From positions 21,901-85,900 of the forward strand of contig CAZTFQ010000002.1 in NCBI GenBank assembly GCA_964613035.1: a stretch of 64,000 nucleotides of DNA, in the 5' to 3' direction. Positions 26,983-41,232 of the stretch are shown one piece after another (the stretch's first letter is position 1; each line of letters begins with the position of its first letter). Below the pieces are notes generated by a model. That model ran no database searches. It saw only the letters and a list, made by a program, of their open reading frames with translations, and was not told where the DNA came from. This DNA is from an uncultured Christensenellaceae bacterium. GTDB lineage: Bacteria > Bacillota > Clostridia > Christensenellales > DTU072. The position numbers were made by a program, and so were the translations under genes.

Positions 26983-28422
26983 TTAATTCTCTTGTACGAG
27001 GATATCGTACTCGGGCATAGGCTTGTTGCGATATTCTTCATCCATTATCGCGAGCTGTTTTTTGATTATGCCTCTCATTCTCACGGCGGGCTCCAGACAA
27101 TATTGTCTCAAGAGCTCCGTATCGACGTCGGAGGGTTGTTTCCAGTGCGGGAAGAGGAGCTTAAGATAAGCGGTCATAATCTTCTTCACGGCATTGGTGT
27201 CACGGGTATCCGCATTGTCGGGGACGACGAGGAACGCGTCCACGAGACCTTTTGAGACAACGTCTTCTCTTAACGCGTGCAATATTTCGGCGAAGTATTC
27301 CGTATTGAGGGCGAAGCCTTCCGCTTTCATACTCTCGTTCATACGAGGGAGTTTCCAGCCCTCGACGAATCCGTGGAAGCGGTCGATGAGCGCGGAGTCG
27401 CCGAAGACTTCCGGCAGTGACTCGAACATATTGACGTTGACGTCCATGACCTCGGATCTGATATTGCCGAGCAAGACCACGCCTGCGTCGCCTTTGCCAG
27501 CCTTGGTGCCGACGGTGTAGGAACCGTTCTCCAGGTATCCTTTCATCGCGCCCTGCATCTCGGACGCGTCGGGGAACTTAATGGTGCTGATTTCGTCCAG
27601 AGCGACGTAGTCGTAATTGGCGACGAGACCGTCGGTCTTTTTACTCATATCGTAGAACATTTTCGCTCTGGTCATAACGCCGCCGCTGGAGAGCCAGCCG
27701 CGCTTGCTGATCTGAGAATAGACGTAGCTTTTGCCGGTGCCCTTGGGGGCGAGCTCGATCATATTGAGTCTCTTCTCGAGGAAGGGAAGGAGTCTGGTAA
27801 GTGCCATCAATTTTCCTTCTCTAGAAGAGTATCCTTCGGGGTTATAATCCATCGCCATCAAGAGGACGTCGATCCATTCGTCCAGCTCGAAATATTTACG
27901 AGCGTTTTTATAATAATCGAGGTCGACGCTATAGGGTAAGAAATTCTTAAAGGACAATAACAGAATTCTGTTCTCCGTCTTCTTGGGGCTGACCTGAACC
28001 TGACCGTACCCCAGCTCTATTATCCCCCATATATCTCCGTCGGTGCCGAGGAGACTGTCTTTACATACGCTCCAGACCTCTTTTGAAATATAGGTGTCGG
28101 AGTTCTTCACGTCGAAGTCGGGCAGAGAAAAGCTGATTTTGTTGGCTTTGATATCGAGCGAAACGTTGATTTTCGCAAGAAACTTCACCTTTTCTCCGTT
28201 CATTATGGAATCGATGATGGCGTTCCATTCTCCCTTACGGGGGATGATGTCTTTTATCTTTTCCAAAACGAAGTCGACGTTGACGTCGCCGTTTTTGTCG
28301 GAATAGCGTTTTATGAACCAGTCTCTGATGAACGCAGGCAGGCTCAGAGCGGAAAAGATGCTCTGGACCGACGACTTTTTAACGACCATTCCTTCGAAAT
28401 ATTGTCTGACTTTTTCTTCCAT
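26983..28422 (-). CDS. P-loop NTPase, possibly BrxL-N-terminal/TIGR02688-like (uncertain family)
   Basis: Walker A LAPKGTGKSY and Walker B YDYVALDEIS. The N-terminal approximately 200-aa domain resembles the BREX BrxL N-region. A 1-nt gap separates it from the upstream AAA gene. Confidence 0.55.
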   Translation of the reverse strand: MEEKVRQYFEGMVVKKSSVQSIFSALSLPAFIRDWFIKRYSDKNGDVNVDFVLEKIKDIIPRKGEWNAIIDSIMNGEKVKFLAKINVSLDIKANKISFSLPDFDVKNSDTYISKEVWSVCKDSLLGTDGDIWGIIELGYGQVQVSPKKTENRILLLSFKNFLPYSVDLDYYKNARKYFELDEWIDVLLMAMDYNPEGYSSREGKLMALTRLLPFLEKRLNMIELAPKGTGKSYVYSQISKRGWLSSGGVMTRAKMFYDMSKKTDGLVANYDYVALDEISTIKFPDASEMQGAMKGYLENGSYTVGTKAGKGDAGVVLLGNIRSEVMDVNVNMFESLPEVFGDSALIDRFHGFVEGWKLPRMNESMKAEGFALNTEYFAEILHALREDVVSKGLVDAFLVVPDNADTRDTNAVKKIMTAYLKLLFPHWKQPSDVDTELLRQYCLEPAVRMRGIIKKQLAIMDEEYRNKPMPEYDILVQEN

Positions 28423-28423
28423 A

Positions 28424-29950
28424 TTATATCTCCATATCGTTTTCGATAACGCCTTTCATGAAGGTAATTTCTTGATTGCAAATGTGATTTTTGGACGATA
28501 TCTCGGCGACGTAGGTACCCGGGGCGTCGATATCCACGACACAACTCCAGTTGCGGATACATTTTTCGCAAGAATAATGCTTGCCGTCCAGCTTGAGATA
28601 CATTCTGTCGTAATCTCCGTCGACGTAGAATCTCAATACGGGGTTTTCTCCGGGTTGCAGAGCTATCAACGTGCTCTCGAACTCGACCGTCGGCGCGTCC
28701 TGAGCGGAGGGGGCTTGAGGTTTCTCTACGGGCTCGGGTTGTACCGCGGGCTGTTCGGGAATAATCTCGGGCACGTCGTCTTCGACGGGTTTTTCGTTAA
28801 GTGAGCGGTCCTTGCCCGCATATTCTTCGAATCGCGCGATTTCCTTTTTGTCGACCATCGGTTTGACCTTTTTTATCGCGTCTACGATATGCTTTTGGGT
28901 GACTTTCATCTCGACGTTCGTGCGGATAAAGCTATTGAGGGGGACGTCCTTGGCGCGATCGCAAATTTCGTCTATATCCGCGCCGGAATAGCCCTCCGTG
29001 AGCTTGGCGATGACGTCGAAGTCCACGTCGTCTTCTATCGGGATGTCCGACAATTGTTTTTTAAGCAGATATTTTCTAGCCGCCTTATCGGGGAGAGGAA
29101 CGTAGATTTTTTCGCTGAATCTTCCCGATCTGACCGCCGCGCCGTCTACGTCCCAGGGGCGATTGGTCGCGCCGAGAAGGAGCAGATTGGGGTTACGTCC
29201 GACGAAGCCGTCTATCTGTTGTAAAAACTCGTTGACGCGCTTATCGTTGTGGGGGTCGTTGCCGCGTTGACCGAAGAGGCTGTCCATCTCGTCGATGAAG
29301 ATGATTGCCAGCTTATCTTTTCTGGCGGTCTCGAAGAGGCTGCTGATGTTCTTTTCCGATTCTCCGACCCATTTACTGACGATATCGGAGCCTTTTATCG
29401 CATAAAAGGTCGCTCCGACCTCGTTGGCGATGGCTTTGGCTATCATCGTTTTCCCTGTGCCGGGAGGACCGTACAGGAGCACGCCGCCGCCGCTTTTTTT
29501 GCCGTAGCGGGCGTATTTCTCGGGATATTTGACGGGATTAATCATCCTCATCCTAATGGACTGCTTGACGTCCTCTAGTCCCGCAACGTCGCTGAATTTG
29601 ATGTCGGGGATGGTTGCGGCTTGCCATTGTTTGGCGTCCTCATCCGACGATGCCGCGTTTTTCTGCCCCGCGGACGGAGCCTTCTTCGGCGTAGTCTGAC
29701 CCGCCGTGCCGCCGATGACGGCGCCGCCTTCCAGATTCTCGGCGATCTCGATGAGCCTTTTCGCTCTCTCGAAGCGAGCCTTTTTCAACTCGCCGGTATC
29801 TTCTTTGGCAAGTTTTATGAGAGCCTGAGCCGCGCGGAGGAGGTTTTCTTTGGCACCGGCGACGTCTCCCCTCTGCTGGGCTTTTTTGGCGTTGTCGTAA
29901 TACATAAGAAACGTATCGTATATGAACGTGCTCTTATCTTCATCCCTCAT
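28424..29950 (-). CDS. Vps4/katanin/spastin-clade AAA+ ATPase with an N-terminal MIT-like domain and a novel Cys-containing C-terminal domain
   Basis: The MIT-like helical N-terminus is YDNAKKAQQRGDVAGAKENLLRAAQALIKLAKE. The AAA core is GVLLYGPPGTGKTMIAKA...SDIVSKWVGESEKNISSLFETARKDKLAIIFIDEMDSL, near-identical in pattern to Vps4. The C-terminal approximately 110 aa contain a CxxC...C...C arrangement. Confidence 0.85.
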   Translation of the reverse strand: MRDEDKSTFIYDTFLMYYDNAKKAQQRGDVAGAKENLLRAAQALIKLAKEDTGELKKARFERAKRLIEIAENLEGGAVIGGTAGQTTPKKAPSAGQKNAASSDEDAKQWQAATIPDIKFSDVAGLEDVKQSIRMRMINPVKYPEKYARYGKKSGGGVLLYGPPGTGKTMIAKAIANEVGATFYAIKGSDIVSKWVGESEKNISSLFETARKDKLAIIFIDEMDSLFGQRGNDPHNDKRVNEFLQQIDGFVGRNPNLLLLGATNRPWDVDGAAVRSGRFSEKIYVPLPDKAARKYLLKKQLSDIPIEDDVDFDVIAKLTEGYSGADIDEICDRAKDVPLNSFIRTNVEMKVTQKHIVDAIKKVKPMVDKKEIARFEEYAGKDRSLNEKPVEDDVPEIIPEQPAVQPEPVEKPQAPSAQDAPTVEFESTLIALQPGENPVLRFYVDGDYDRMYLKLDGKHYSCEKCIRNWSCVVDIDAPGTYVAEISSKNHICNQEITFMKGVIENDMEI

Positions 29951-29965
29951 GACGTATTCCTCTTA

Positions 29966-30550
29966 TTATTGTTTTAAGCTCTTAGCCAGTTCTTCCAGCT
30001 GGCGGTCGATATCGTTGTCCAGAGACTGCTCCTCGTCGGAAGCCTGGTTGCCTATAAGCGCCTCCAACTCGCTGTCGTCGATGTTGATGTTGGAAGACGA
30101 AATCGCGGTGAAGGTATCGTTGGTGGAGTCGAGCATGGCGTCGAGGTTGTCGGTGGTCTCTTCCACGCCCATCATCGCCGCTTCGAATTCCTTCTGGACC
30201 TTGGCGAAGTTCATATCCTTGGTAATAGCCTGCATTTCCTTAGAAACGACGCTCATTCCTTTAAGAAACTCGCCCGTCATCTGGCTCAAATCGCGCATTT
30301 GGAGAGTGTTTTGGAAATTAAGAAGCATTTCCTTGGCTTTTTTCTCCTGAGCCATAGCGGTCCTTAAGCAGCTGACTGCCAGGCTGTATTGCTGAGGAGA
30401 GCCTTGAATCTTAGCCTGTTTTGCGGATTCTACGGCTTTTTGTTTCTGAGCCTGGAGCTTGGTGATATGCTTCTCTATGTCGCGCATGGTCCTGCGCACG
30501 AGCATTCTCTTCTCCATTTCTTTTTCTTGTTTTGTCTTAAAGAGTCCCAT
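29966..30550 (-). CDS. Snf7/ESCRT-III-like protein (CHMP3/Vps24-like) with a C-terminal MIM-like motif
   Basis: The N-terminus MGLFKTKQEKEMEKRML... matches MGLFGKTQEK of Vps24. The N-terminal half is basic and the C-terminal half acidic. It ends DIDRQLEELAKSLKQ, resembling MIM1 (D/E)xxLxxRLxxL(K/R). Confidence 0.75.
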   Translation of the reverse strand: MGLFKTKQEKEMEKRMLVRRTMRDIEKHITKLQAQKQKAVESAKQAKIQGSPQQYSLAVSCLRTAMAQEKKAKEMLLNFQNTLQMRDLSQMTGEFLKGMSVVSKEMQAITKDMNFAKVQKEFEAAMMGVEETTDNLDAMLDSTNDTFTAISSSNINIDDSELEALIGNQASDEEQSLDNDIDRQLEELAKSLKQ

Positions 30551-30561
30551 AATAATTACCT

Positions 30562-31164
30562 CTAGATGGAAGAGCTCTCGCTCTGCTTGTTTTCTTCTTC
30601 GGATATCTCGGAGCCGAAGTTTTCCGCGTCTTTTTCCGAGCCGGATATTTCAAACATACTGAGGAGTTGATCGTCCTGCTCGTTGATTCCGTAGATGCGT
30701 TCGTCCGCCTCGTAGGCGTCCTCGACTTCTTCGAAGGTCTCCAAAGTCTCCGACAGCATACTTTCGCTACGCATTTTTTGTCCGGATATTCCGCTGATAA
30801 ACTTACGGAGCGCGTTGGTGTCCGTAAGAAGCTTGTTGATAGGCATATCGGAATTGTTGTTGATGAATTCCTTATCGTCTATTGCGGTCTTGAGCTGATT
30901 GAGCGCGAGAAGATTGGCGTTGAGATACTGGATGCGCTGATTAGCCATCTGATTCTCTTTACGTAAAAGATTGATACGCTTGGCAAGAGTCAACTGTCTG
31001 TCGCGGCTCTTGGTCTCGCTACCAGCCTTAAGGAGCTTCTCTATCTCTTTTTCCCTCTCCTCGACGGCGTCCATTTCTTCTTGCTGTTTTTTCTCGACGT
31101 TGATTATGTTTTCCACAACGTCGCTACGTTTGATTTTCTCAAACTTATTCTTAAAAAAGCACAT
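30562..31164 (-). CDS. Snf7/ESCRT-III-like paralog (200 aa)
   Basis: The N-terminus MCFFKNKFEK follows the same M-[GC]-[LF]-F-[KQ]-x-K pattern. It is predicted coiled-coil with a basic N-half and an acidic C-tail. Confidence 0.6.
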   Translation of the reverse strand: MCFFKNKFEKIKRSDVVENIINVEKKQQEEMDAVEEREKEIEKLLKAGSETKSRDRQLTLAKRINLLRKENQMANQRIQYLNANLLALNQLKTAIDDKEFINNNSDMPINKLLTDTNALRKFISGISGQKMRSESMLSETLETFEEVEDAYEADERIYGINEQDDQLLSMFEISGSEKDAENFGSEISEEENKQSESSSI

Positions 31165-31166
31165 TT

Positions 31167-31520
31167 TTATACCCCCGCCAGACTGTTGCGCTCAACAATC
31201 ATTATCCTGACGTCGTTGATTTTATCGAGAATTTTTCCTTCGTTTTTATCTCCGGATATCAGAATCTTGATATCGTCCAGCTTATCCGCTATTTTGTCGT
31301 CTTCTTTCATGACTGCGGGTGCGGTGGAAGGCGCGCCGTACTCGACGAGTTCTTCCAGCTCGCGGAGCTTCTCTTTGACGACGTCGGACTCGGACATCGC
31401 TATCAGAGTCTTGACCTTGGCAAGATTGATACGCAGGGTCTCGACGTTATCCTTTATCGCCTCGTCGTGCTTGTCGTATTGTTTTTGATGTTTTTTATAC
31501 TTGGATTGGAAAAAACACAT
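31167..31520 (-). CDS. Short Snf7/ESCRT-III-like paralog (117 aa)
   Basis: N-terminus MCFFQSKYKK. Helical with charge asymmetry. Perfect RBS AAGGAG. It lies 2 nt from the next gene. Confidence 0.5.
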   Translation of the reverse strand: MCFFQSKYKKHQKQYDKHDEAIKDNVETLRINLAKVKTLIAMSESDVVKEKLRELEELVEYGAPSTAPAVMKEDDKIADKLDDIKILISGDKNEGKILDKINDVRIMIVERNSLAGV

Positions 31521-32486: not shown

Positions 32487-33815
32487 TTAATACATATTTT
32501 TTTTGCTTTCCAGCAATGAAGCTTTTTGTTCCAGCCACTCCGCAAAACCGTTGATTTCCACCAACTTGGACTCGTAGCCGCCGCGCAGTCTGCCCATCTC
32601 GTCCAGAATCTGCATCATATGAGAATCGTCCCAGGATCCCGTGAGTCGTCCGAGCGCGTAGAGACACTCCGTGATGACGTTATTTTGCCCGTTGCCGTAG
32701 TCTCTCAATTTCCTCGCCAACAACCTCAGCGCCTCGGGATTGGTACGGACGTCTCCGCCGCCCGTCGAATAAGAACCGCGAACGCCTTCCGCCGATACGG
32801 AACCGCCCGACGACGATTCTCTGCCTCCGCCGTACGAAGGAGCTCTTTTCTCGGGAGCTTTTTCGGGAGCCTTCTCGGGGGTTGCTTTTTCCTTTTCGGC
32901 GACAGGCTCGGAAGCCTTTTCTACGGGTTTCTTTTCCTCGCGGACGAATTGTTTCGCCGCCAATCGAAGAATTCCTTCGAAGTCGCCGTTGCCTATCTCG
33001 AAATAAGGATTGCGCTTGAGTTCCGACGGCATATCGTCGATATCGCAGTCGTACAAGGCGAGGCAGGCTTTTTTGGACGGATCGCTCTTAGCCATCCGCA
33101 GATAACGTCTCCAGACGTCTTCCGCCTGCGTGAGGTTGCAATTGTCAAGCGACGACGTCATTACTATCAACAGCTTGGCTTTCGATATCGCGTTGTAAAG
33201 ATACGGTTCGCGTTCGGTCGGTCCGAGATTTCCCAACTCCGCGCCGCTCCAGAAAACCTTCTTTTTCGTACGTGCTTTCAGTGCCGCGACCAGAGGCATC
33301 GCCAGGGACGCTTCCGGGGAATATTCCTCGCAACACACCATGATGTCGTAGTCGGATTCTTTAGCTATTCTTAAGGCGTTGTTACGCAGTCTGTCCAGCT
33401 CTTCCGCCTTGTAAGCGTATTCTTCCGCCATACTCCCGGGACATAGCGACATGGCTTTTTTATAATAAGCGCTGTCGAAAAACGATTGCGAGCCGATTTC
33501 GTAAAACACCGGACACAAACCATCGTCGTATTTTGAATAAGTCAGGTGCTTGGACGCCAGCATCAATCCCCAGGCGGCTTCGAAGCTGTCGGGGGCATCT
33601 TTCAAAATAGACTCGTAGTCTTCCATCGCCTCTTCGAACTTCGCTTTCCGTCTATACGCGCTCGCGCGGTTAAGATTGATAATGAGCTCGTCGGAGACTT
33701 TAGTAAGATCTATTTCGAACTTCGAATGACAATATATGCACTCGTAGGAGCCCTCGGCCACCTTTTCCAGCGCGCCTCCGCACATTTGACATTCCAGTTT
33801 TCTTAGTTCTGCCAT
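32487..33815 (-). CDS. Zn-ribbon/TPR-like protein with a possible TIR-like (flavodoxin-fold) domain, a PEK-rich linker and a helical C-domain
   Basis: The N-terminus is CQMCGG...YECIYCHSKF. The middle block DIMVCCEEY...KKKVFWSGAELGN...KAKLLIVMTSS has a TIR-like beta-alpha pattern. A (PEKA)n linker follows. The ATG at 33815 overlaps the upstream stop (TGATG). Confidence 0.5.
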   Translation of the reverse strand: MAELRKLECQMCGGALEKVAEGSYECIYCHSKFEIDLTKVSDELIINLNRASAYRRKAKFEEAMEDYESILKDAPDSFEAAWGLMLASKHLTYSKYDDGLCPVFYEIGSQSFFDSAYYKKAMSLCPGSMAEEYAYKAEELDRLRNNALRIAKESDYDIMVCCEEYSPEASLAMPLVAALKARTKKKVFWSGAELGNLGPTEREPYLYNAISKAKLLIVMTSSLDNCNLTQAEDVWRRYLRMAKSDPSKKACLALYDCDIDDMPSELKRNPYFEIGNGDFEGILRLAAKQFVREEKKPVEKASEPVAEKEKATPEKAPEKAPEKRAPSYGGGRESSSGGSVSAEGVRGSYSTGGGDVRTNPEALRLLARKLRDYGNGQNNVITECLYALGRLTGSWDDSHMMQILDEMGRLRGGYESKLVEINGFAEWLEQKASLLESKKNMY

Positions 33816-35923
33816 CACGCACCTCTGTTGCTATCGAGAGCGCTGCCCGAAAAAGCCGTCGAAGAGACGTCGCAATCTTCTTTATAGACGACCTCGACCA
33901 GAGACGTACAATTGCCGAAGGCGTATTCGCCGATAGTGTCGGCGTTGCGGCAATCGACCACTCTCAGCCCGACACAATCGAAAAACGCATAACTGCCGAC
34001 GTTGCCTTCCACGAACACCTTTTTAAGGGACTCGGGGACTTCGTAGCCGCCGAAAAAGTATGCGAGACCCGAGACGTAAGTACCGCCGTTGGTGAGGCTT
34101 TGGACCGTCAACTCCTCTAGTCCCGTGCATCCGTACAACGCACCGTATCCGAAATCTGCGCTACAGGGTAAATCTAATTTTTTAAGAGAGCGACAATTGG
34201 CGTACGCGTTCTCTCCCACGTATATGAAAGTGTTGGCGGAATAAGTCTTGACGGTTATTTTTTGTACATCGATGAGATTGGCAAAGACTTCCGAAGGAAT
34301 AGAGCAAGTCGACGACAAGCTTGTACGCGCGTTGCTGTATTCCACTATTTTCAACGATTTAGGTATATAACTTCTTATTGTGGATTCATTTAAATCGCCG
34401 TCGTATTTCGTCGCACCGAAAAATCTCGAAATACTAGAATTACTAACGTTGTCGAGGTTGTCCTCGAAGACGAGTTTTTGGAGATTTTTGCATCCGGACA
34501 GCGCGCCCTGTTCGATGAGTCTGATATTGTCGCCGATAGTCAGAGAGATTATCGCCTCGTTGCCGCGGAAAGCGTTTGCTCCCAGTCCGACGACGTCGTA
34601 TTCCGTACCGTTGAGCGTAACCTTCTCGGGCACGACGACCTCGTAGTATCCGGGATAAGACGACGATTCCTCACTATCAGGGAAGCTCTTCACGCCCTCT
34701 ATACGCGCGACCAAATCTTCGTTGTCGAAGGAAAGACTGAAAAGATATCCTTCGTCTGAGAGGTTGTATTCTCCCGCCGTGAATCCTTTTAAGAACAAAT
34801 ATCCGCCGGTAAGACCTACCGCCAGGACGAGTATCAACACGATGAAGCTCGTCCAGAGTCTGCCTTTATACTGAGGCGCGTATTTACATTTATGTTTGAT
34901 TTTCTTCCAAGTTACGGGGTCTTCTATTACGATAACGCCTTCCTTCTTCTTGCCGGACTTCTTTTTCTTATGTCCGATAATAAGGAACAGCACGTTGAAC
35001 ACCAGCGAAAATCCCGCCAGACCGAGTCCCAAGAAACAGGCGATTATGTAAAACGCATACGCGCTAAGCATGAGTTCTTCTTGCGCCAGCATCGCGAGAG
35101 GTCCCGCGAAAACAGCCAGCGCCGCGCCCGACGCCACGCCGATGATCATCGACAACCAGGACATGAGCGTGCCTTTTCTTCTGCCTCTCTTTATCTTCTC
35201 GTCGACGCACTGCGCGAGGTCCGCGGTATGCTTTTTACTGTTACTTTTAATAACTGAATAGTTTTTTTTGTATTTTTCGGCGATGGCGTCTTCCTTATTG
35301 CGATATTCGTCCAGATGCGCCTCGAACTTGTCGTTATTCTTGAAGCTTACCTCGGCTTTGGAAGAGAACACGTGAGGATAAGTACCGCGTCTAAGGTCGT
35401 GAAAATCGGCTTCTGCCGTCTCCCAAACCTCTTCCGAATAACCTTTCATCCGATCGGAAACGAAAGACTGCTGAAGATACTTCTTCCCTGCGGAAACGTT
35501 GGATTTTATTTGTTTTTTCTCGGTCGACAATATTTCCGAGTCTTCTTCGATAGGCTCGAGAACGATTTCTTCCGTTTTCTTTTTCCCGCGCTTTTTAGAA
35601 GCCGATTTGTCTTCTTTGGGAGAGGGGGCTTCTACAACTTCTTCGACGACTTCTTCGTCGTCCTCGGATTCCTCCGCGAAAAACGCCTCGATATCGTCCT
35701 CGTAGTCGGAGTCGTCTTCTTCGTCTTCTTCGTAGTATTCTTCCTCTTCGACTATTATATCGTCGTCGTATTCTTCGTTGACGGAAATAGTCGACTCTTC
35801 GTCGGAAGCGACTTCTTCGGATTTCTTATTAGCCTCTTCTTGCGCCAGCATGTTTTGCTTCTCTTCAAGAAGTTTTTTCAACTCTTCGATGGTTAAATTG
35901 TTGAGATCGTCTTTTTTACCCAT
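33815..35923 (-). CDS. Membrane protein: hyper-acidic cytoplasmic N-region, 3-4 TM helices and an extracellular BspA-type leucine-rich-repeat domain
   Basis: An EEYDDDIIVEEEEYYEEDEEDD tract. Hydrophobic helices lie around residues 255-360. The C-terminal repeats with IGEYAFGNCTSLVEV are typical of BspA-like LRRs. Confidence 0.65.
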   Translation of the reverse strand: MGKKDDLNNLTIEELKKLLEEKQNMLAQEEANKKSEEVASDEESTISVNEEYDDDIIVEEEEYYEEDEEDDSDYEDDIEAFFAEESEDDEEVVEEVVEAPSPKEDKSASKKRGKKKTEEIVLEPIEEDSEILSTEKKQIKSNVSAGKKYLQQSFVSDRMKGYSEEVWETAEADFHDLRRGTYPHVFSSKAEVSFKNNDKFEAHLDEYRNKEDAIAEKYKKNYSVIKSNSKKHTADLAQCVDEKIKRGRRKGTLMSWLSMIIGVASGAALAVFAGPLAMLAQEELMLSAYAFYIIACFLGLGLAGFSLVFNVLFLIIGHKKKKSGKKKEGVIVIEDPVTWKKIKHKCKYAPQYKGRLWTSFIVLILVLAVGLTGGYLFLKGFTAGEYNLSDEGYLFSLSFDNEDLVARIEGVKSFPDSEESSSYPGYYEVVVPEKVTLNGTEYDVVGLGANAFRGNEAIISLTIGDNIRLIEQGALSGCKNLQKLVFEDNLDNVSNSSISRFFGATKYDGDLNESTIRSYIPKSLKIVEYSNARTSLSSTCSIPSEVFANLIDVQKITVKTYSANTFIYVGENAYANCRSLKKLDLPCSADFGYGALYGCTGLEELTVQSLTNGGTYVSGLAYFFGGYEVPESLKKVFVEGNVGSYAFFDCVGLRVVDCRNADTIGEYAFGNCTSLVEVVYKEDCDVSSTAFSGSALDSNRGA

Positions 35924-35976
35924 AGCGTTGCCCTGTGCCTTGTATTATATTTGTGATTGGTCGATGCCTTACTTTT

Positions 35977-36252
35977 TTATTTTATCAGCCCCGAGTATCT
36001 CTCCATTATGTCGAGCCTCTGCGTCACGCCGTCGTCCACCGTCGCTCTGTACGCCGCCACGACTTGCAGAAGAGCCTCCAGCTCCGATAATATCTCTCCC
36101 GTGAGATTGTCTATACTCTTCTCCGTCGCGATATCGCTAAGAGAATCTTTTAGCAGGATATACTCGGACTCTATTCTTTCGTGAAGTTCCGCCGTACACG
36201 CTCTGAAAGCGAGAAGCTTCTCGGGAGTGTTATCTATCGTTATTCCGCTCAT
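35977..36252 (-). CDS. Small helical protein (92 aa)
   Basis: The ORF-track N-extension overlaps the upstream gene. The internal ATG at 36252 gives a 4-nt overlap (ATGA) with the upstream stop, typical of translational coupling. Confidence 0.45.
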   Translation of the reverse strand: MSGITIDNTPEKLLAFRACTAELHERIESEYILLKDSLSDIATEKSIDNLTGEILSELEALLQVVAAYRATVDDGVTQRLDIMERYSGLIK

Positions 36253-36761
36253 AGACCGAATCTCCTCGCGTTGAGATATTCTCCGACGCAATTTTCGCAG
36301 GCGTCGACGAGTGCCGCTCTCGCTCCGAATGTCTCTCCCAGAGCGTTGAGCAATCGGCTGATTTCCGAAGTGAGCTCGTCGGCTCTCTCTATCCTTTTGT
36401 CGACGAAACCGCATATCTCCTCTATAACGGAGATATTGGCGGAGAGCTCTTTACAAAACTCGTCTATTCCGTCGATGTCGGCGGCAAGTTTTTCAGACTC
36501 GCCTTCGTTTTTGTCAAACAACTTTTCCTCGCTGCTGACGGAAACGAGATCGTTTTCCATGGCGACGCGTCTGGTGTTGCGCTCTTCGATGATGGCGTTA
36601 AGTTTCCTCTTCTTGTCCTCGAGATTTTCGCGGACGGACGAGGCGATTTCTCTTGCCGCGGCTATTTCCGAGGAATACGCGCCGACGTTTTCCGCAATCG
36701 TCGCGTACAGCTTGAAATAGACGTTCTTTGCCGCTTCTATCGCGTCGAGATTGACTTTCAT
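36249..36761 (-). CDS. Coiled-coil protein (170 aa)
   Basis: RBS GGAGGAG. Heptad-like helical sequence. Stop/start overlaps on both sides. Confidence 0.5.
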   Translation of the reverse strand: MKVNLDAIEAAKNVYFKLYATIAENVGAYSSEIAAAREIASSVRENLEDKKRKLNAIIEERNTRRVAMENDLVSVSSEEKLFDKNEGESEKLAADIDGIDEFCKELSANISVIEEICGFVDKRIERADELTSEISRLLNALGETFGARAALVDACENCVGEYLNARRFGL

Positions 36762-37021
36762 CGGTTCTCCTCCGCACGCGCATACGCCGCTCTCAAAAGG
36801 TTGTCGAGGTCTTCCGCGGGTACTGCCGCCACCGCCTCGTTGAGGGCGGTAAAGAATTCTTCGTCGCTTCTTTTCAACAAGAGCGCGACGTTACTGAGAT
36901 CTTCTATTCCGCTACCGAGAACCGCCGCGCCTACTTCGTCGTCCCATTCCGCGGACAACTCGTCGATAGACGCGCGGGCTTCCGCTATAGCCGCCAGACA
37001 ATCGTCGATATACTTACTCAT
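36758..37021 (-). CDS. Small helical protein (87 aa), WXG100-sized
   Basis: All-helical and acidic with a central W (AEWDDEVG). It has 4-nt overlaps with its neighbours. Confidence 0.5.
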   Translation of the reverse strand: MSKYIDDCLAAIAEARASIDELSAEWDDEVGAAVLGSGIEDLSNVALLLKRSDEEFFTALNEAVAAVPAEDLDNLLRAAYARAEENR

Positions 37022-37284
37022 GAGTCAAGATACATACACAGCCAGTTGTAAACTTCCTGACAAAAGCCGTCTATGGCGTTGAGTCTGCCGAGAATTTCCG
37101 ACAAGTCTGCCGTTATTCCCTGGAAGTTGTTAAGAAACTTGACCACGTTGGCGTCTTTCCATTCCGACAGACTCTGTTCTATCTCCGACACCATCTCGGA
37201 ATGATTTTGGACAAGCGCCTGCTCGGTCTGTCTCACTATGTTCTGAGCCGTCAGTACGGACTCTTTGCTTACGTTGACGTTCAT
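37018..37284 (-). CDS. Small helical protein (88 aa), WXG100-sized
   Basis: RBS GAGGAAAGA. Helix-turn-helix-like hairpin with a central SEWKDA. Confidence 0.5.
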   Translation of the reverse strand: MNVNVSKESVLTAQNIVRQTEQALVQNHSEMVSEIEQSLSEWKDANVVKFLNNFQGITADLSEILGRLNAIDGFCQEVYNWLCMYLDS

Positions 37285-37292
37285 TCTTTCCT

Positions 37293-37559
37293 CTACTTGA
37301 GCGTAATGCTTCTATATAAGTCGATGAGCTCTTGTTTTTGCCTGATGACGTTTTCGACGCCGTCGGTCTTGGAAACCAGCTCGTCGGCAATCGACAACAA
37401 CTTGACCGCGACTTCTTCCGCGTCGGCGTAATCTCGGTCGGCACAATTCTCTTTCAGCGCCTGTACTTTACGCAGATAATCGACGCACGCGTCTCTTACT
37501 TCTCCGACGACTCTTCCGAGCGCTCCCTCGTCTACGGAACCGCTTACCTTTACTTCCAT
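37293..37559 (-). CDS. Small helical protein (88 aa)
   Basis: Helical. It overlaps the 3' end of the upstream ATPase gene by 10 nt. Confidence 0.5.
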   Translation of the reverse strand: MEVKVSGSVDEGALGRVVGEVRDACVDYLRKVQALKENCADRDYADAEEVAVKLLSIADELVSKTDGVENVIRQKQELIDLYRSITLK

Positions 37560-40500
37560 AGAGCGTTATAATCCTCTGCCAGCTTAACCATCCAGGCTTC
37601 GTCCGCTTCGCTGTAGTATCTGTACGGCTTAAACTTATTCATCTCGTTGTTGACGAGGCATACGCCCAGTCCTTCTATGCCGATATTGATATTGCTTCTA
37701 AACGATGCGACCGATGTGACGGCTTCCGCGTCGAGTCCCTTGATGAAGACCTTGTTCTGACAATTACGCATAACGGTATTGATGCTGGGGACGCTGGACG
37801 GCTTGTCTATCGAGAACACTATATGAATATTCTGGTTGGGTCCGTTTTCGAACACGTCGTTGAACAGTTGCGAAAAAGTCATCTTGTTGCCGCCGGAAGA
37901 CGCCGCGCCGCCTAAGTTGAGTCCGAGACTGAACCCCATTCCGGACGATGACGCCACGGGTGCGGGGGCGGGTTTTTCGGACAAATCGATGAGCTTGGAG
38001 TTGTCCTTGAAGTAAGACGCTATCTCCTGAATTTTGTTTATGAACAGGAATATCGGATTGTGCTTATCCTGAATATGGTCTGCTCTCTCTTTTCTGAGAT
38101 TATGAAGCTTGACCAGAGCATCGGTGAGATCTCCCGCGGCATTCAAAACGCGAGTCGAATCCGCGAAATACTTAGGCAGGACGAAGAACAGGTCGTCGGG
38201 GTTTTTCTGACTGATGACTTCGCCGTTGAAGTAGTACACCTGCGCGGAGGAGTCGTTTTCAAAGTCTTGGTTGGTACGGTTTTCCATAAGCACGGACAGC
38301 ATGGAAAAGCCCATCATATCTCTCAGCACCTCTACGTTGGCGCCGGCGAACCACAGGTTGGAATTGGACTCGCGCAGACGTATCGGGATATTGTACGGCT
38401 TGCCGGAGATGTAATCCTGACCGATAGCCAGATTGTAGAAGTCGGCGGACTTGGAGACGATATCTTCTTTCGAGACTTTTTTCGTGTAAGCGGAGAGACC
38501 CTCGTTGGCTTTGGGCTCTTCGAGGTTGCTGCCGACGACGAAGAGCGGCTCTCTGACGCTCCACTTGGAGACGACGTCTTGCCACTTCTCTATAATGCGC
38601 TCGGAATACATCTCTCTGTTGTCGGAGTTTTCCGCATACGCCACGCGGAATTCAGCCGCGTTCTGTCCAGTACGGGTATCCTTGATGATGCCTACGCCCA
38701 AGGTATTGGACAAATTGGCTACTTTAGATACGCTTATGCCCAGTTCTTGCGCGTCGTCGGGATTGTTGAGTTTAAGAGAAATTCTGTTGCCTATCTGAGA
38801 AATGACCTTGTCTCTGAGTCCCGCCACCTTAGGCACGTTCTGCGACGCCCAGAGCACGTTGATGCCGAAAGCTCTGCCTTTTTTGAAGAGCTTGGACATA
38901 AGATTGATGGCGTAGGTGCCGACGTTTTGGTCGCGCTCGAACAGTTCCTGAACCTCGTCGATGATGACAAGCAGTCTCGGGAGCGTCTTACCGGCACGCT
39001 TCTTGTATTGCATGATGTCTTCCACGTTGTTGTTGCGGAAGAGCGCCTCTCTTCTCTCCAGCTCTTTGTCTATGTTGGACAACACCGCGAGTCCGTCCTC
39101 GGGGTCGGAAGAAAGCGCCGTCAGCTTGACGTGAGGAAGTTGTTTTTCTACGTTCTTGTTGGCTTCGTAATACTTGAATTCCACGCCGCCCTTGAAGTCG
39201 ACCAGGTAGATGTTGAGGTCGTCGGGGCTGTACTTATAGCACGCGGACATAACGATGGCGTGGAGTAGGTTGGACTTACCGCTACCGGTACCGCCTATCG
39301 CCAGAGCGTGAGCCGCGCCGTCGCCCTTGGACGAAAACGCCAGAGTCTGAACGTCTCCGCCTCTCATACCTATCGGGATATCGATAATCTCCGTAGGATC
39401 CGCGTAATCCTCGCTCTTGACGACGACGTCGGTGCTGTCGAACATCTTGGACAGTGCGATAACCTTGTTGGCGCTCTTCTTGATGTTCTGTTTCATAACC
39501 TTGATGTAGTCGTCCAGCTTTTCGTACGAGCAGTCTTTATTGTTTTCGAAAACGTATTTGGGATTGGCTTCCAAATAAATTTCGCCGCCCTTAACGAGGA
39601 AATAATTCATCGATTGCTTCGCCTCCGCGACGAAGTCTTTTATGTACTGGGGCTGAGTGCCCTTGCCGTTGTACAGCATTATCGTGAATATACCGGAACG
39701 ATTGCCGTTGTCGATGATTTTTTTGAGTCTCTTGACGGTCTTCTCGCTGCTGAAACATTCCGGGAAACCGACTATCGACAACACCGAGAACGCCTGGGGG
39801 TCGTTTTCGGAAACGACGTTGTAACCGTAGATGTCTTTTTTGTTGCTACGAGTGATTTTATCGTCGTAGATACTGCCCATTCTCTCGTCAAGATTGACAA
39901 TCTCGTTGGACACTCTCGAATCGTCGTTGTAAGTCTTTTTGAATAGATTGTTGTCGATGTTGTTGAGCTGGTTGAACGCGGCGAATTCTCCCGTATCGTA
40001 GAGGTCTATCAGTTGATAATTGACCCTCGTCGGCGGGAACCCCATCAAAAACGACAACATAATGTTGCGCACCATCGATATGGCGACCGCATTATCCTTG
40101 TCGGAATCCACTTCTATCAAAACGTTGCCGTTCTTTTTCAACTCCAGCACGTACGGCGCGGTCAGTACGCCGCCGGGCGTGTATTTGCCGAGTAAGGGAC
40201 TGTCGGTAGAATTGATATATTTTTTGTAGCCGTCCTTATCGAGATAACTGATCTTCATATCGCCGAGAGTCAGCTTGGTGGGATAAGTAAGACTGCCTTT
40301 TTCGAAGTCTACCTTGCCGCTCTTGGCAGACTCGTAAATGTCGCAAAAACGGTCGTCGTTGAGAACATTGTCTTCTACCTGAAGTCTGTTCTTGAGAGCG
40401 GAAGCCATCTCCTTATTGAGGACCGCCGCGCAATCTGCCATATATTCTTCCGACTGCTTTTTGAGATGTTTATCGAATTTTTTAAGGTCGAAACGTCTCC

Positions 40501-41086
40501 TTATCATCGTTTCCATGGAGTCGAGGACCATACGGCACTGAGAAGCCTTCCCGTACAGCTCTCTCATCAGGTCCGTATAAGGCGTCCCGTAGACGCCGTA
40601 CTCCTTGGAGTCGCCGAGCGTTACGGTCCTCTTCCCGTCGCGATCGTTGATTACGAAGCTCTCCGCTCTGCCTTCTACGGAGAGAACCTCGGGAATGGGT
40701 TCGGTCGCCTCCAAATCGAGGTCGTTGAGAGCCTCTACGAGAGCGTTCATTTCCGCACACAGTCTTTTGACGGTGTCTCTGTTGACGTCGTAGTCGAGAG
40801 AAACGATTCCTTCCTTGGGGACGTCGCCTATGTTGGCGATACTCTCTTTCATGCTATTGCCGTATGAGTCGAGGAGCTTTTGAATATCTTTTCTGACTCT
40901 GTCCACTTCCGTCTTGACGTAAGTATCGATCGACTTCTCCATCTCCTTGTAGAGCTTGGAATTGGTCTCGTCGAGAGCGTTGCGTTGCATAACGATAGCG
41001 CCGGCGATTTCTTTCTCGAAGGCGCTCAACGCGGAAAAACGAGCGTTGAAAGAATCTATCATTTTTTTGATTTCTTTGAATTCCAT
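37550..41086 (-). CDS. FtsK/SpoIIIE-family (EssC/EccC-like) ATPase with three tandem domains (one intact P-loop), no TM segment
   Basis: Central domain is GGTGSGKSNLLHAIVMS (Walker A) ... LPRLLVIIDEVQELF (Walker B). The flanking domains have the FtsK-like fold pattern but degenerate P-loops. It is the first gene of the operon, with RBS GAGAGGAAG. Confidence 0.75.
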   Translation of the reverse strand: MEFKEIKKMIDSFNARFSALSAFEKEIAGAIVMQRNALDETNSKLYKEMEKSIDTYVKTEVDRVRKDIQKLLDSYGNSMKESIANIGDVPKEGIVSLDYDVNRDTVKRLCAEMNALVEALNDLDLEATEPIPEVLSVEGRAESFVINDRDGKRTVTLGDSKEYGVYGTPYTDLMRELYGKASQCRMVLDSMETMIRRRFDLKKFDKHLKKQSEEYMADCAAVLNKEMASALKNRLQVEDNVLNDDRFCDIYESAKSGKVDFEKGSLTYPTKLTLGDMKISYLDKDGYKKYINSTDSPLLGKYTPGGVLTAPYVLELKKNGNVLIEVDSDKDNAVAISMVRNIMLSFLMGFPPTRVNYQLIDLYDTGEFAAFNQLNNIDNNLFKKTYNDDSRVSNEIVNLDERMGSIYDDKITRSNKKDIYGYNVVSENDPQAFSVLSIVGFPECFSSEKTVKRLKKIIDNGNRSGIFTIMLYNGKGTQPQYIKDFVAEAKQSMNYFLVKGGEIYLEANPKYVFENNKDCSYEKLDDYIKVMKQNIKKSANKVIALSKMFDSTDVVVKSEDYADPTEIIDIPIGMRGGDVQTLAFSSKGDGAAHALAIGGTGSGKSNLLHAIVMSACYKYSPDDLNIYLVDFKGGVEFKYYEANKNVEKQLPHVKLTALSSDPEDGLAVLSNIDKELERREALFRNNNVEDIMQYKKRAGKTLPRLLVIIDEVQELFERDQNVGTYAINLMSKLFKKGRAFGINVLWASQNVPKVAGLRDKVISQIGNRISLKLNNPDDAQELGISVSKVANLSNTLGVGIIKDTRTGQNAAEFRVAYAENSDNREMYSERIIEKWQDVVSKWSVREPLFVVGSNLEEPKANEGLSAYTKKVSKEDIVSKSADFYNLAIGQDYISGKPYNIPIRLRESNSNLWFAGANVEVLRDMMGFSMLSVLMENRTNQDFENDSSAQVYYFNGEVISQKNPDDLFFVLPKYFADSTRVLNAAGDLTDALVKLHNLRKERADHIQDKHNPIFLFINKIQEIASYFKDNSKLIDLSEKPAPAPVASSSGMGFSLGLNLGGAASSGGNKMTFSQLFNDVFENGPNQNIHIVFSIDKPSSVPSINTVMRNCQNKVFIKGLDAEAVTSVASFRSNINIGIEGLGVCLVNNEMNKFKPYRYYSEADEAWMVKLAEDYNALWK

Positions 41087-41202: not shown

Positions 41203-41232
41203 AATAATACAACGGGGGGGGGTACCTGTCAA
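41203..41232 (-). promoter_or_regulatory. Candidate promoter of the 15-gene operon with a G10 homopolymer in the spacer
   Basis: Minus strand TTGACA (41232-41227), an 18-nt spacer containing C10 (41213-41222 on the plus strand as G10), then TATTAT (about 41208-41203). Confidence 0.45.

Follow-up and report, generated by a model that had tools for sequence, protein, structure and literature searches.

A BREX-4-type BrxL linked to an SPFH/ESCRT-III-like/Vps4-like gene cassette in Bacillota and relatives

The stretch of DNA considered here, which we call the window, is a 64-kb segment from an uncultured Christensenellaceae bacterium (assembly GCA_964613035.1, contig CAZTFQ010000002.1, positions 21,901 to 85,900). 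It carries a gene for BrxL, a protein otherwise known only from bacteriophage exclusion (BREX) phage defence. We find that this BrxL belongs to a clade that has left BREX and become the fixed partner of a membrane-remodelling cassette, made up of an SPFH protein, three coiled-coil or Snf7-like proteins and a Vps4-like AAA ATPase. As a whole, the best explanation of our results, to which we give about an even chance of being right, is that a BREX-4-derived BrxL was fixed in the cassette as the DNA arm of a membrane-associated conflict system.

Identity and relatives of the window BrxL

The gene, a 479-aa open reading frame (ORF) with an ATG start on the minus strand, encodes a genuine full-length short BrxL of the type-4 BREX form. 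A preliminary description, made from the sequence by eye, had placed it in the BrxL/TIGR02688 family and proposed a hidden Markov model search with TIGR02688 and TIGR02653 as a check. The family assignment stands: the protein scores 434.5 bits on the NCBIfam model TIGR02688 (cut-off 329.3, E=3.9e-130), covering profile positions 1-448 of 449, passes the Pfam models for both BrxL regions and reaches 653.5 bits on the PADLOC BrxL model PDLC02505. The other half of the check was negative, with TIGR02653, the model of long, Lon-bearing BrxL, giving 240 bits (cut-off 628.25) in an alignment that ends at profile position 453 of 675. The two Walker motifs that the same description had picked out are both present. 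No C-terminal Lon or HKD domain is found in the protein, which ends at residue 479.

Structural comparisons lead to the same family. The sole phmmer match in the PDB is the BrxL of Acinetobacter (8emc/8emh, E=2e-52, aa 3-458), and a Foldseek search with an AlphaFold2 (AF2) model of the window protein (pLDDT 80.7, pTM 0.81) returns chains of these entries as its top 24 matches (E 4e-30 to 3e-23, TM-score on the query 0.69-0.74), followed by MCM helicases at E about 1e-6. The Acinetobacter protein is an ATP-dependent ring that binds double-stranded DNA (dsDNA), has DNA-stimulated ATPase activity and is required for restriction, which the Walker B mutation E280Q abolishes (PMC10164562). E277 of the window BrxL aligns with this E280. 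Three mutated pore positions were mapped from the Acinetobacter protein, and one is conserved in the window: K92 aligns with R104 and is kept in both cassette-linked and BREX-4-linked clades. The BrxL_N region is a DNA-binding module with a helix-turn-helix (HTH)-like part and an OB-fold (PMC12839542), and type-4 BrxL retains just this N-terminal HTH/OB region and the MCM-type AAA+ domain.

The relatives of this protein were surveyed by scanning one genome per species for BrxLs at least 50% identical to it and clustering the neighbouring genes of the resulting 80 loci. Around 70 of these close homologues lie in canonical BREX-4 loci of the order BrxP-BrxC-PglZ-BrxL. A 756-aa PglZ-type family occupies position -1 in 67 of the 80, a 1395-aa BrxC-type family position -2 in 61, a 776-aa BrxP-type family position -3 in 53 and a 383-aa cysteine-desulfurase family position +1 in 46; these names rest on one representative of each family, scored against PADLOC (PglZ 330, BrxC 810, BrxP 847 and DndA/SspA-type cysteine desulfurase 420 bits). 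Type-4 phosphorothioate BREX is thus the usual context of the relatives of the window BrxL. Phosphorothioate modification by BREX-4 proceeds without brxL (PMC12914056).

A different arrangement is found around the closest relatives. The eight closest genome loci, together with a further one, L021 (locus labels are our own), hold no BREX genes and carry same-strand homologues of the window genes for the SPFH, coiled-coil, Snf7-like, Vps4-like and 443-aa proteins, usually upstream of BrxL. Contig look-ups added three clade loci with the same gene pattern; L081, whose BrxL is 76% identical to that of the window, is fully syntenic with it. The nearest relatives of the window protein come from Christensenellales metagenome-assembled genomes (MAGs). 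When BREX-4 PglZ, BrxC, BrxP and cysteine desulfurase were used as tblastn queries, no match was obtained in the window or in 15 clade loci.

In neighbour-joining trees one clade, apart from the BREX-4-linked proteins, unites the window protein with all cassette-linked BrxLs and nearly all of the 59 best database matches. With distant BREX-4-linked outgroups included, the cassette-linked clade is monophyletic and nested among BREX-4 branches, which suggests a single recruitment from BREX-4. The two groups have nonetheless diverged little, in that 105 positions reach at least 95% identity in each group and two positions alone discriminate between them; the DNA-binding N-terminal region is as conserved in the cassette clade as in BREX-4 BrxL. 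A decayed BREX relic was considered as an identity for the gene and rejected on this strong conservation between clades and on the lack of BREX remnants by tblastn.

Linkage of BrxL to the cassette

The counts in this section refer to 16 clade loci, some of them close relatives of one another (L021 and L197, for instance, hardly differ), with crude ORF calling where gene calls were absent. BrxL follows the cassette of SPFH, three coiled-coil/Snf7-like and Vps4-like genes in 15 of the 16, across several orders. Seen from the BrxL side, 12 of 13 BrxL-anchored loci (the window included) have the Vps4-like cassette; seen from the other side, BrxL is present at all three loci reached through a Vps4-like protein that bears the C-terminal domain. 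In the window the two genes are joined closely, the TAA stop of the Vps4-like gene lying 1 nt ahead of the BrxL ATG and a GGAG lying 7 nt upstream of that ATG, so that translational coupling is very likely. The junction and the recurrent linkage together confirm BrxL as a real component of the ESCRT-like cluster, as the preliminary description had supposed.

Three architectures occur among homologues of the Vps4-like protein. One, to which the window protein belongs, measures about 480-530 aa and ends in a C-terminal extension; a shorter one of about 372-385 aa lacks it; and a third, of about 700 aa, has two AAA domains. The extension is present in 16 of 16 BrxL loci and in none of three BrxL-less cassette architectures. 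It comprises aa ~420-508 of the window protein (28424-28690, minus strand), and the AF2 model folds aa ~420-500 as a β-sandwich with pLDDT above 90. Five loci representing the three BrxL-less architectures keep the same SPFH and coiled-coil genes, with Ppx-GppA, RelA_SpoT, TPR-TIR or trypsin genes as add-ons. Since loci anchored on the extension carry BrxL and cassettes lacking BrxL exist, BrxL is an accessory module that defines one sub-lineage of the cassette. Pairwise distances among the Vps4-like proteins correlate with those among the BrxLs (r=0.84, Mantel p about 2e-4), and the two genes have been inherited together. A metagenome scan with the Vps4-like alignment was swamped by generic AAA ATPases, at no more than 46% identity and with no cassette genes.

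The ESCRT-like features of the cassette are of unequal clarity. The Vps4-like protein begins, in its AF2 model, with a three-helix bundle. Some of its orthologues match Pfam MIT and Vps4_C; the window protein reaches 19.8 bits on Vps4_C, below the gathering threshold (GA) of 21.3. Among NCBIfam models it scores 217 on CdvC (cut-off 650) and 241 on CDC48, and p97/CDC48 D2 domains are the top Foldseek matches of its AAA core. As CDC48 outscores CdvC and p97 D2 comes first, 'Vps4-like' is used here as an architectural label. IetA was rejected as an identity for this ATPase: the PADLOC IetA match of 133 bits reflects the generic classical-AAA core, on which CDC48 and CdvC score higher. The 194-aa Snf7-like protein ends in a tail of the form IDxELExLRKKI (DIDRQLEELAKSLK in the window, 29966-30010, minus strand), which the alignment shows to be conserved in 13 loci, BrxL-less ones among them. 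We take this tail to resemble MIM1, the motif by which ESCRT-III proteins bind the MIT domain of Vps4, going by the MIM1 consensus.

Gene order and accessory genes

The coordinates of the window features, and of trypsin genes from related loci, are collected in the table.

Table. Features of the BrxL-containing array in the window, and Zn-ribbon trypsin genes of related loci (prefixed by locus label)
Feature	Position	Strand	Basis or remark
Promoter-like site TTGACA-17-TATTAT (11/12)	41204..41232	-	consensus match only; downstream of pyrG terminator
EssC/FtsK-SpoIIIE-like ATPase, 1178 aa, array head	37550..41086	-	Pfam/NCBIfam; syntenic in L081 only
Membrane protein, 702 aa, three predicted transmembrane (TM) segments and BspA-type leucine-rich repeats (LRRs)	33815..35923	-	lineage-specific, common to L081 only
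Zn-ribbon, tetratricopeptide-repeat (TPR), degenerate TIR-like protein, 443 aa	32487..33818	-	Pfam TPR matches only
SPFH (Band_7_1) protein, C-terminal zinc ribbon, 311 aa	31533..32468	-	Pfam and homologue loci
Small coiled-coil protein, 117 aa, conserved cassette member	31167..31520	-	ORF and homologue loci
Coiled-coil protein, 200 aa, conserved cassette member	30562..31164	-	ORF and homologue loci
Snf7/ESCRT-III-like coiled-coil protein, 194 aa, conserved MIM1-like tail	29966..30550	-	Pfam Snf7 22.8 bits, below GA 27.3
Vps4-like classical AAA ATPase, 508 aa: N-terminal three-helix bundle, AAA core and lid, linker, C-terminal β-sandwich	28424..29950	-	Pfam, NCBIfam, AF2
Translational-coupling junction: GGAG, 7 nt (holding Vps4-like TAA and 1 nt), BrxL ATG	28420..28436	-	sequence
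Short BrxL gene (479 aa, type-4-BREX-type)	26983..28422	-	TIGR02688, Pfam, phmmer vs PDB, AF2/Foldseek
BrxL_N region (aa 7-139)	28006..28404	-	Pfam PF20442, 96.1 bits (GA 28.2)
BrxL_ATPase, MCM/Lon-related AAA+ (aa 155-467)	27022..27960	-	Pfam PF13337, 380.1 bits, E=8e-114
Walker A LAPKGTGKS (aa 224-232)	27727..27753	-	read from sequence; invariant across 17 homologues
Walker B VALDEIS (aa 273-279)	27586..27606	-	sequence; DE invariant across 17 homologues
Secreted protein, 1017 aa (N-terminal TM/signal, weak Trypsin_2, Flg_new repeats)	23869..26922	-	ORF, Pfam, TM prediction
Intrinsic-terminator-like hairpin (10 bp, 6 GC) then T run	23820..23845	-	first convincing minus-strand terminator; likely unit end
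Zn-ribbon (CxxC...CxxC) trypsins	L004:9201-9989, L005:9214-9975, L006:9236-9988		cytoplasmic
Zn-ribbon (CxxC...CxxC) trypsins	L083:1706-2431, L196:11603-12538, L193:11273-12091		cytoplasmic

BrxL had been described as the last gene of its operon. This has to be revised, because a 1017-aa gene follows on the same strand with no terminator between. The 60-nt spacer (26923-26982, minus strand) contains a GGAG ribosome-binding site and no U-tract terminator. Within it lies a 7-bp GC-rich hairpin (GTCCGTC...GACGGAC), also lacking a U tract, which could act in processing or attenuation instead of termination. The gene for the 1017-aa secreted protein is probably the true last gene of the unit. Its product has an internal duplication, consisting of two near-identical blocks (...NGASGTAPA...TLTYPDIPTR.GYVFAGWYDNSACTGAPFDF...) with a similar β-rich module after each. 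It was rejected as an orthologue of the trypsins of related loci on account of its N-terminal TM/signal segment and its lack of homology to the cytoplasmic Zn-ribbon-trypsin. At the other end, a terminator after pyrG (41327-41302) lies upstream of the array, which, judged only from consensus scans, may run from about 41.2 kb to about 23.8 kb.

The array is headed by a module resembling a type VII secretion system (T7SS; 33815-41086, minus strand), comprising the EssC/FtsK-like ATPase, the 3-TM BspA-LRR protein and small ORFs that include 36249-36761 and 35977-36414. L081 has this module in synteny (L081:1-4484), and no other related locus has it. The array end faces a convergent gene (21120-23753, plus strand) whose 877-aa product scores 114.6 bits on Thiol_cytolysin, the domain of cholesterol-dependent cytolysins; this gene has no counterpart in the syntenic relative L081. 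The presence of a pore-forming toxin gene beside a putative membrane-repair cassette is suggestive.

The possible TIR-like domain mentioned in the preliminary description proves to be a feature of the family rather than of the window copy. Homologues of the 443-aa protein combine a Zn ribbon at the N-terminus with TPRs and a TIR domain, those of L004 and L001 scoring 34.9 and 36.1 bits on TIR_2 (GA 28). Such TPR-TIR proteins (L004:2125-4998 and L001:11427-13517 among them) are encoded in many clade loci, the largest at about 1590 aa; the window copy is a truncated relative in which no Pfam TIR match is found at E<=0.01. The glutamate of a WVKNE motif, kept in most homologues, is V or I in the window copy and L081 (V in the window) and Q in L007. 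We take this glutamate to be the catalytic residue, reasoning from SARM1 and plant TIRs. With the glutamate replaced and no Pfam match, the window TIR-like domain is degenerate and probably inactive.

Eleven of the 16 clade loci, the window not among them, encode a trypsin-fold protease of about 240-315 aa, usually adjoining BrxL. It has an N-terminal Zn ribbon and an intact His/Asp/Ser triad, and the lack of a signal peptide places it in the cytoplasm. That Zn ribbons recur on the trypsin, at the N-terminus of the TPR-TIR protein and at the C-terminus of the SPFH protein hints at a shared recruitment mechanism. The BrxL-less sister cassettes contain either a Ppx-GppA phosphatase gene or a small RelA_SpoT alarmone-synthetase-like gene (L191/L192:9085-9981; L193/L194, L193:2727-3434), which points to possible nucleotide signalling around a shared SPFH/coiled-coil/AAA core. 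PADLOC recognises BrxL in the cassette and otherwise gives generic AAA and trypsin matches, with none for the SPFH, coiled-coil, TIR-TPR or LRR proteins.

Proposed function, rival explanations and known systems

What the cassette does is something we infer rather than show, and the proposal below is graded accordingly. As 105 positions are shared between cassette-linked and BREX-4-linked BrxLs and just two discriminate, we take the biochemical activity, an ATP-driven dsDNA ring, to be unchanged; the window BrxL has probably kept the ability to assemble into an ATP-dependent ring and, in that form, to bind or translocate dsDNA. In the mechanism we propose, BrxL would supply DNA recognition or motor activity, the Vps4-like protein would recruit it, possibly via the C-terminal β-sandwich, the ESCRT-III-like/Vps4-like/SPFH module would remodel or reseal membrane, and loci with TIR or protease modules would use these as effectors. 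That BrxL serves a membrane-associated conflict system as its DNA-recognising or motor arm, the system being directed against phage or mobile elements or responding to the damage they cause, has in our estimate slightly less than an even chance. The Vps4-like C-terminal domain is a tentative candidate for the BrxL docking site, and we hold this with less confidence than the role of the arm itself.

The defence reading rests on cassette content, namely BrxL, TIR, protease and the alarmone-type genes of sister cassettes, and not on the neighbourhood. The preliminary description had gone further and taken the whole cluster for a defence island, which its surroundings do not bear out. The array is flanked on one side by origin-proximal housekeeping genes (pyrG, cysS, cysE, ychF, gyrA, gyrB, parB, mnmG and mnmE) and on the other by surface-protein, sugar-utilisation and ArsR genes and the thiol-activated-cytolysin homologue, and no restriction-modification (RM), abortive infection (Abi), integrase or prophage genes occur in the 64-kb window. 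Judged from gene content rather than by a formal enrichment statistic, the cassette shows no defence-island signature and is not recognised as a catalogued system. What survives of the defence reading is that the cassette carries defence-type modules, to which most related loci add a trypsin-like protease; set against this are the mostly housekeeping flanks and the degenerate window TIR. Two large serine recombinases come right after the cassette at L083, together with a 132-aa SpoVAD fragment from a truncated spoVAD (L083:6520-10474); this may be an integrated element that interrupts spoVAD. The insertion site differs among genomes, which fits an accessory element.

Several observations weigh against the view that BrxL serves a conflict system from within this cassette. 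The flanks of related loci are mostly housekeeping genes (ATP synthase/V-ATPase, Sua5, phosphofructokinase and DNA polymerase III, or RecA and a germination protease), and the 63 flank proteins of 8 loci gave sparse PADLOC matches (MzaA three times, mad2/3, WYL, DrmC and Csa3). In L001 the order is ftsA-ftsZ-spoIIGA-sigE-sigG-cassette-nrdR (L001:772-5632), and in L002 it is mraZ/mraW...ftsA-ftsZ-cassette (L002:494-6045). The earlier argument that the cluster lies outside any division or cell-wall context is therefore true of the window and fails for these two loci; the conserved housekeeping context that would have spoken against defence is likewise seen there and is not conserved elsewhere, L001 and L002 being Christensenella-type sister genomes and the only pair with ftsZ adjacency. 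None of 27 BrxL matches in IMG/VR belongs to the cassette clade or has the cassette; most of the contigs carry BREX-4 genes, two have none of five query genes and one has the desulfurase only. PLSDB gave 315 plasmid matches, again none of the cassette clade, the best being 44.6% identical and from a BREX-4 locus on a Methanosphaera plasmid. With no clade member on viral contigs or plasmids, there is little direct evidence of mobility. Other points concern the proteins themselves. The pore residue K287 of Acinetobacter BrxL has no conserved equivalent in the window protein, the AAA core of the Vps4-like protein is closest to p97/CDC48 D2, so that its name is an architectural one, and all BrxL trees are neighbour-joining trees without support values. 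L007 has a clade BrxL with SPFH, a 361-aa coiled-coil protein, trypsin and TPR-TIR (L007:5574-11431), and tblastn detected no Vps4-like or 194-aa Snf7-like gene at this locus. Finally, with the window TIR degenerate and the trypsin absent, the core function needs no such effectors.

Four other explanations were weighed. That BrxL is a chance neighbour of the cassette, or a BREX-4 relic with no functional link to it, would agree with a family otherwise overwhelmingly linked to BREX-4, but is effectively refuted by linkage in 15 of 16 loci over several orders, by a monophyletic clade with intact catalytic motifs, and by genes that are translationally coupled, have co-diverged and lie among no BREX remnants. 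A housekeeping membrane-scission machine for division, sporulation or abscission is the strongest of the four, although we consider it unlikely. The cassette would cut membranes as cells or forespores divide and, by analogy with FtsK/SpoIIIE or the eukaryotic abscission checkpoint, the DNA-encircling BrxL ring would sense or clear chromosomal DNA at the constriction. In its favour, the cassettes of L001 and L002 stand right after ftsA-ftsZ, and those of L083 and L198 have sporulation genes in their vicinity (spoVA and a germination protease, respectively). In the window an FtsK/SpoIIIE-family ATPase gene heads the cassette, which lies near the replication-origin gene set, and flanks are generally housekeeping. 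Yet the ftsZ adjacency is confined to one pair of sister genomes, with all other loci elsewhere, the FtsK-like gene is syntenic in L081 only, and ftsA and ftsZ are retained in these genomes. TIR, trypsin and alarmone-type accessory genes would moreover be unusual for division machinery, and the full cassette is found in L004, a MAG labelled Anaeroplasmataceae, a wall-less family that is not known to sporulate.

The two remaining explanations turn on what BrxL would thread. In a Psp-like system for envelope stress and membrane repair, BrxL would be a Lon-related unfoldase feeding the Zn-ribbon-trypsin as a 'split Lon', clearing membrane-associated proteins that are damaged or foreign, and the bilayer would be resealed by ESCRT-III-like polymers. 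PspA of B. subtilis has a partner of the same SPFH-Zn-ribbon architecture in the ydj operon, the ATPase of BrxL is related to Lon and a Lon-like domain is present in long BrxL, the trypsin gene adjoins BrxL in most loci that have it, and in the window a pore-forming cytolysin homologue and a T7SS-like ATPase are among the neighbours. Solved BrxL, however, holds dsDNA in its pore and has a DNA-stimulated ATPase, and its N-terminal DNA-binding region is conserved here as in BREX-4; the trypsin gene is absent from five of 16 loci, the window included, and the L193/L194 cassette has trypsin without BrxL. We rate this explanation as rather less likely than the scission machine. Least likely of the three that retain a functional link is a DNA-in-vesicle machine, in which BrxL would do the threading of DNA, and vesicles pinched off by Vps4-like/ESCRT-III-like scission would carry DNA out of the cell or rid it of injected phage DNA. 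A DNA-ring ATPase fixed beside a scission-type cassette would suit such a role, and archaeal ESCRT-dependent vesicles carry DNA (review PMC7619361), but the case is one of analogy and no packaging, portal-like or nuclease components were identified. The proposition that an ESCRT-III/Vps4-type machine recruited the BREX DNA ring to act on DNA at membranes, where it might expel or sequester injected foreign DNA in vesicles or package DNA for export, is in our view improbable, very slightly more so than the Psp-like system. If it were true, these would be the first bona fide Vps4 and ESCRT-III systems in bacteria and the first BREX component reused outside BREX, with the β-sandwich as BrxL docking adaptor.

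Returning to BrxL as the DNA arm of a conflict cassette, automated annotation already labels these proteins BrxL, and the family assignment is therefore not new. What appears to be new is that a BREX-4 BrxL has been recruited, in a conserved manner, into an SPFH/ESCRT-III-like/Vps4-like cassette without BREX genes, and that it co-varies with an extra domain on the Vps4-like protein. The searchable literature gave no description of BrxL in combination with Vps4, Snf7, ESCRT, SPFH or TIR, and a text search for TIR (as NADase domain), trypsin and Lon in a comparative study that notes sporadic bacterial Snf7/AAA+ associations gave nothing matching the cassette. BrxL is the least understood component of BREX, needed for restriction and not for modification. 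A lineage that has BrxL and lacks PglZ, BrxC, PglX and BrxP makes it a self-contained module and offers a simpler setting in which to learn how it acts on DNA. The Bacillota cassettes combine SPFH, three ESCRT-III-like proteins, one with a MIM-like tail, and a MIT-like AAA ATPase, and a fixed BrxL partner gives the concrete hypothesis that DNA recognition is coupled to membrane remodelling. Carriers of the cassette belong to the Christensenellales and Clostridia of gut and rumen, groups of ecological prominence that are poorly studied.

Comparison with known systems places the window BrxL nearest to that of type-4 BREX (TIGR02688), with which it shares its length, the BrxL_N and MCM-type AAA+ domains, the lack of a C-terminal domain and 50-55% identity; it differs in partnering the SPFH/ESCRT-III-like/Vps4-like cassette in place of PglZ, BrxC, BrxP and desulfurase. 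Type-1 BREX BrxL (TIGR02653; 8EMC/8EMH) is homologous over aa 3-458 with a matching fold, and E280 and R104 are kept as E277 and K92, whereas K287 is not kept and the window protein lacks the Lon-like C-terminal domain of about 200 aa that mediates hexamer-hexamer dimerisation. Many related loci resemble IetAS-type and other ATPase-plus-protease defence pairs in encoding ATPases together with a serine protease, although the protease here has a trypsin fold with a Zn ribbon and is not a subtilase. With the ESCRT-III and Vps4 (CdvB/CdvC) systems of archaea and eukaryotes, the cassette has in common several small coiled-coil proteins, one of them with a weak Snf7 match and a MIM1-like tail, and with archaeal 'Meth_adaptin' loci, which encode SPFH-coiled-coil-Zn-ribbon proteins, it has in common SPFH and a Zn ribbon. 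A text search of an archaeal ESCRT survey found 0 mentions of a BrxL partner. Unlike the archaeal and eukaryotic systems, the cassette is bacterial (Bacillota and relatives), shows no ESCRT-I or ESCRT-II and adds a C-terminal β-sandwich to its Vps4-like protein. The pspA-ydjGHI operon of B. subtilis likewise encodes an SPFH (Band_7_1)-Zn-ribbon protein (YdjI) beside a protein of the ESCRT-III superfamily (PspA), but does so without an AAA ATPase, BrxL, TIR or protease.

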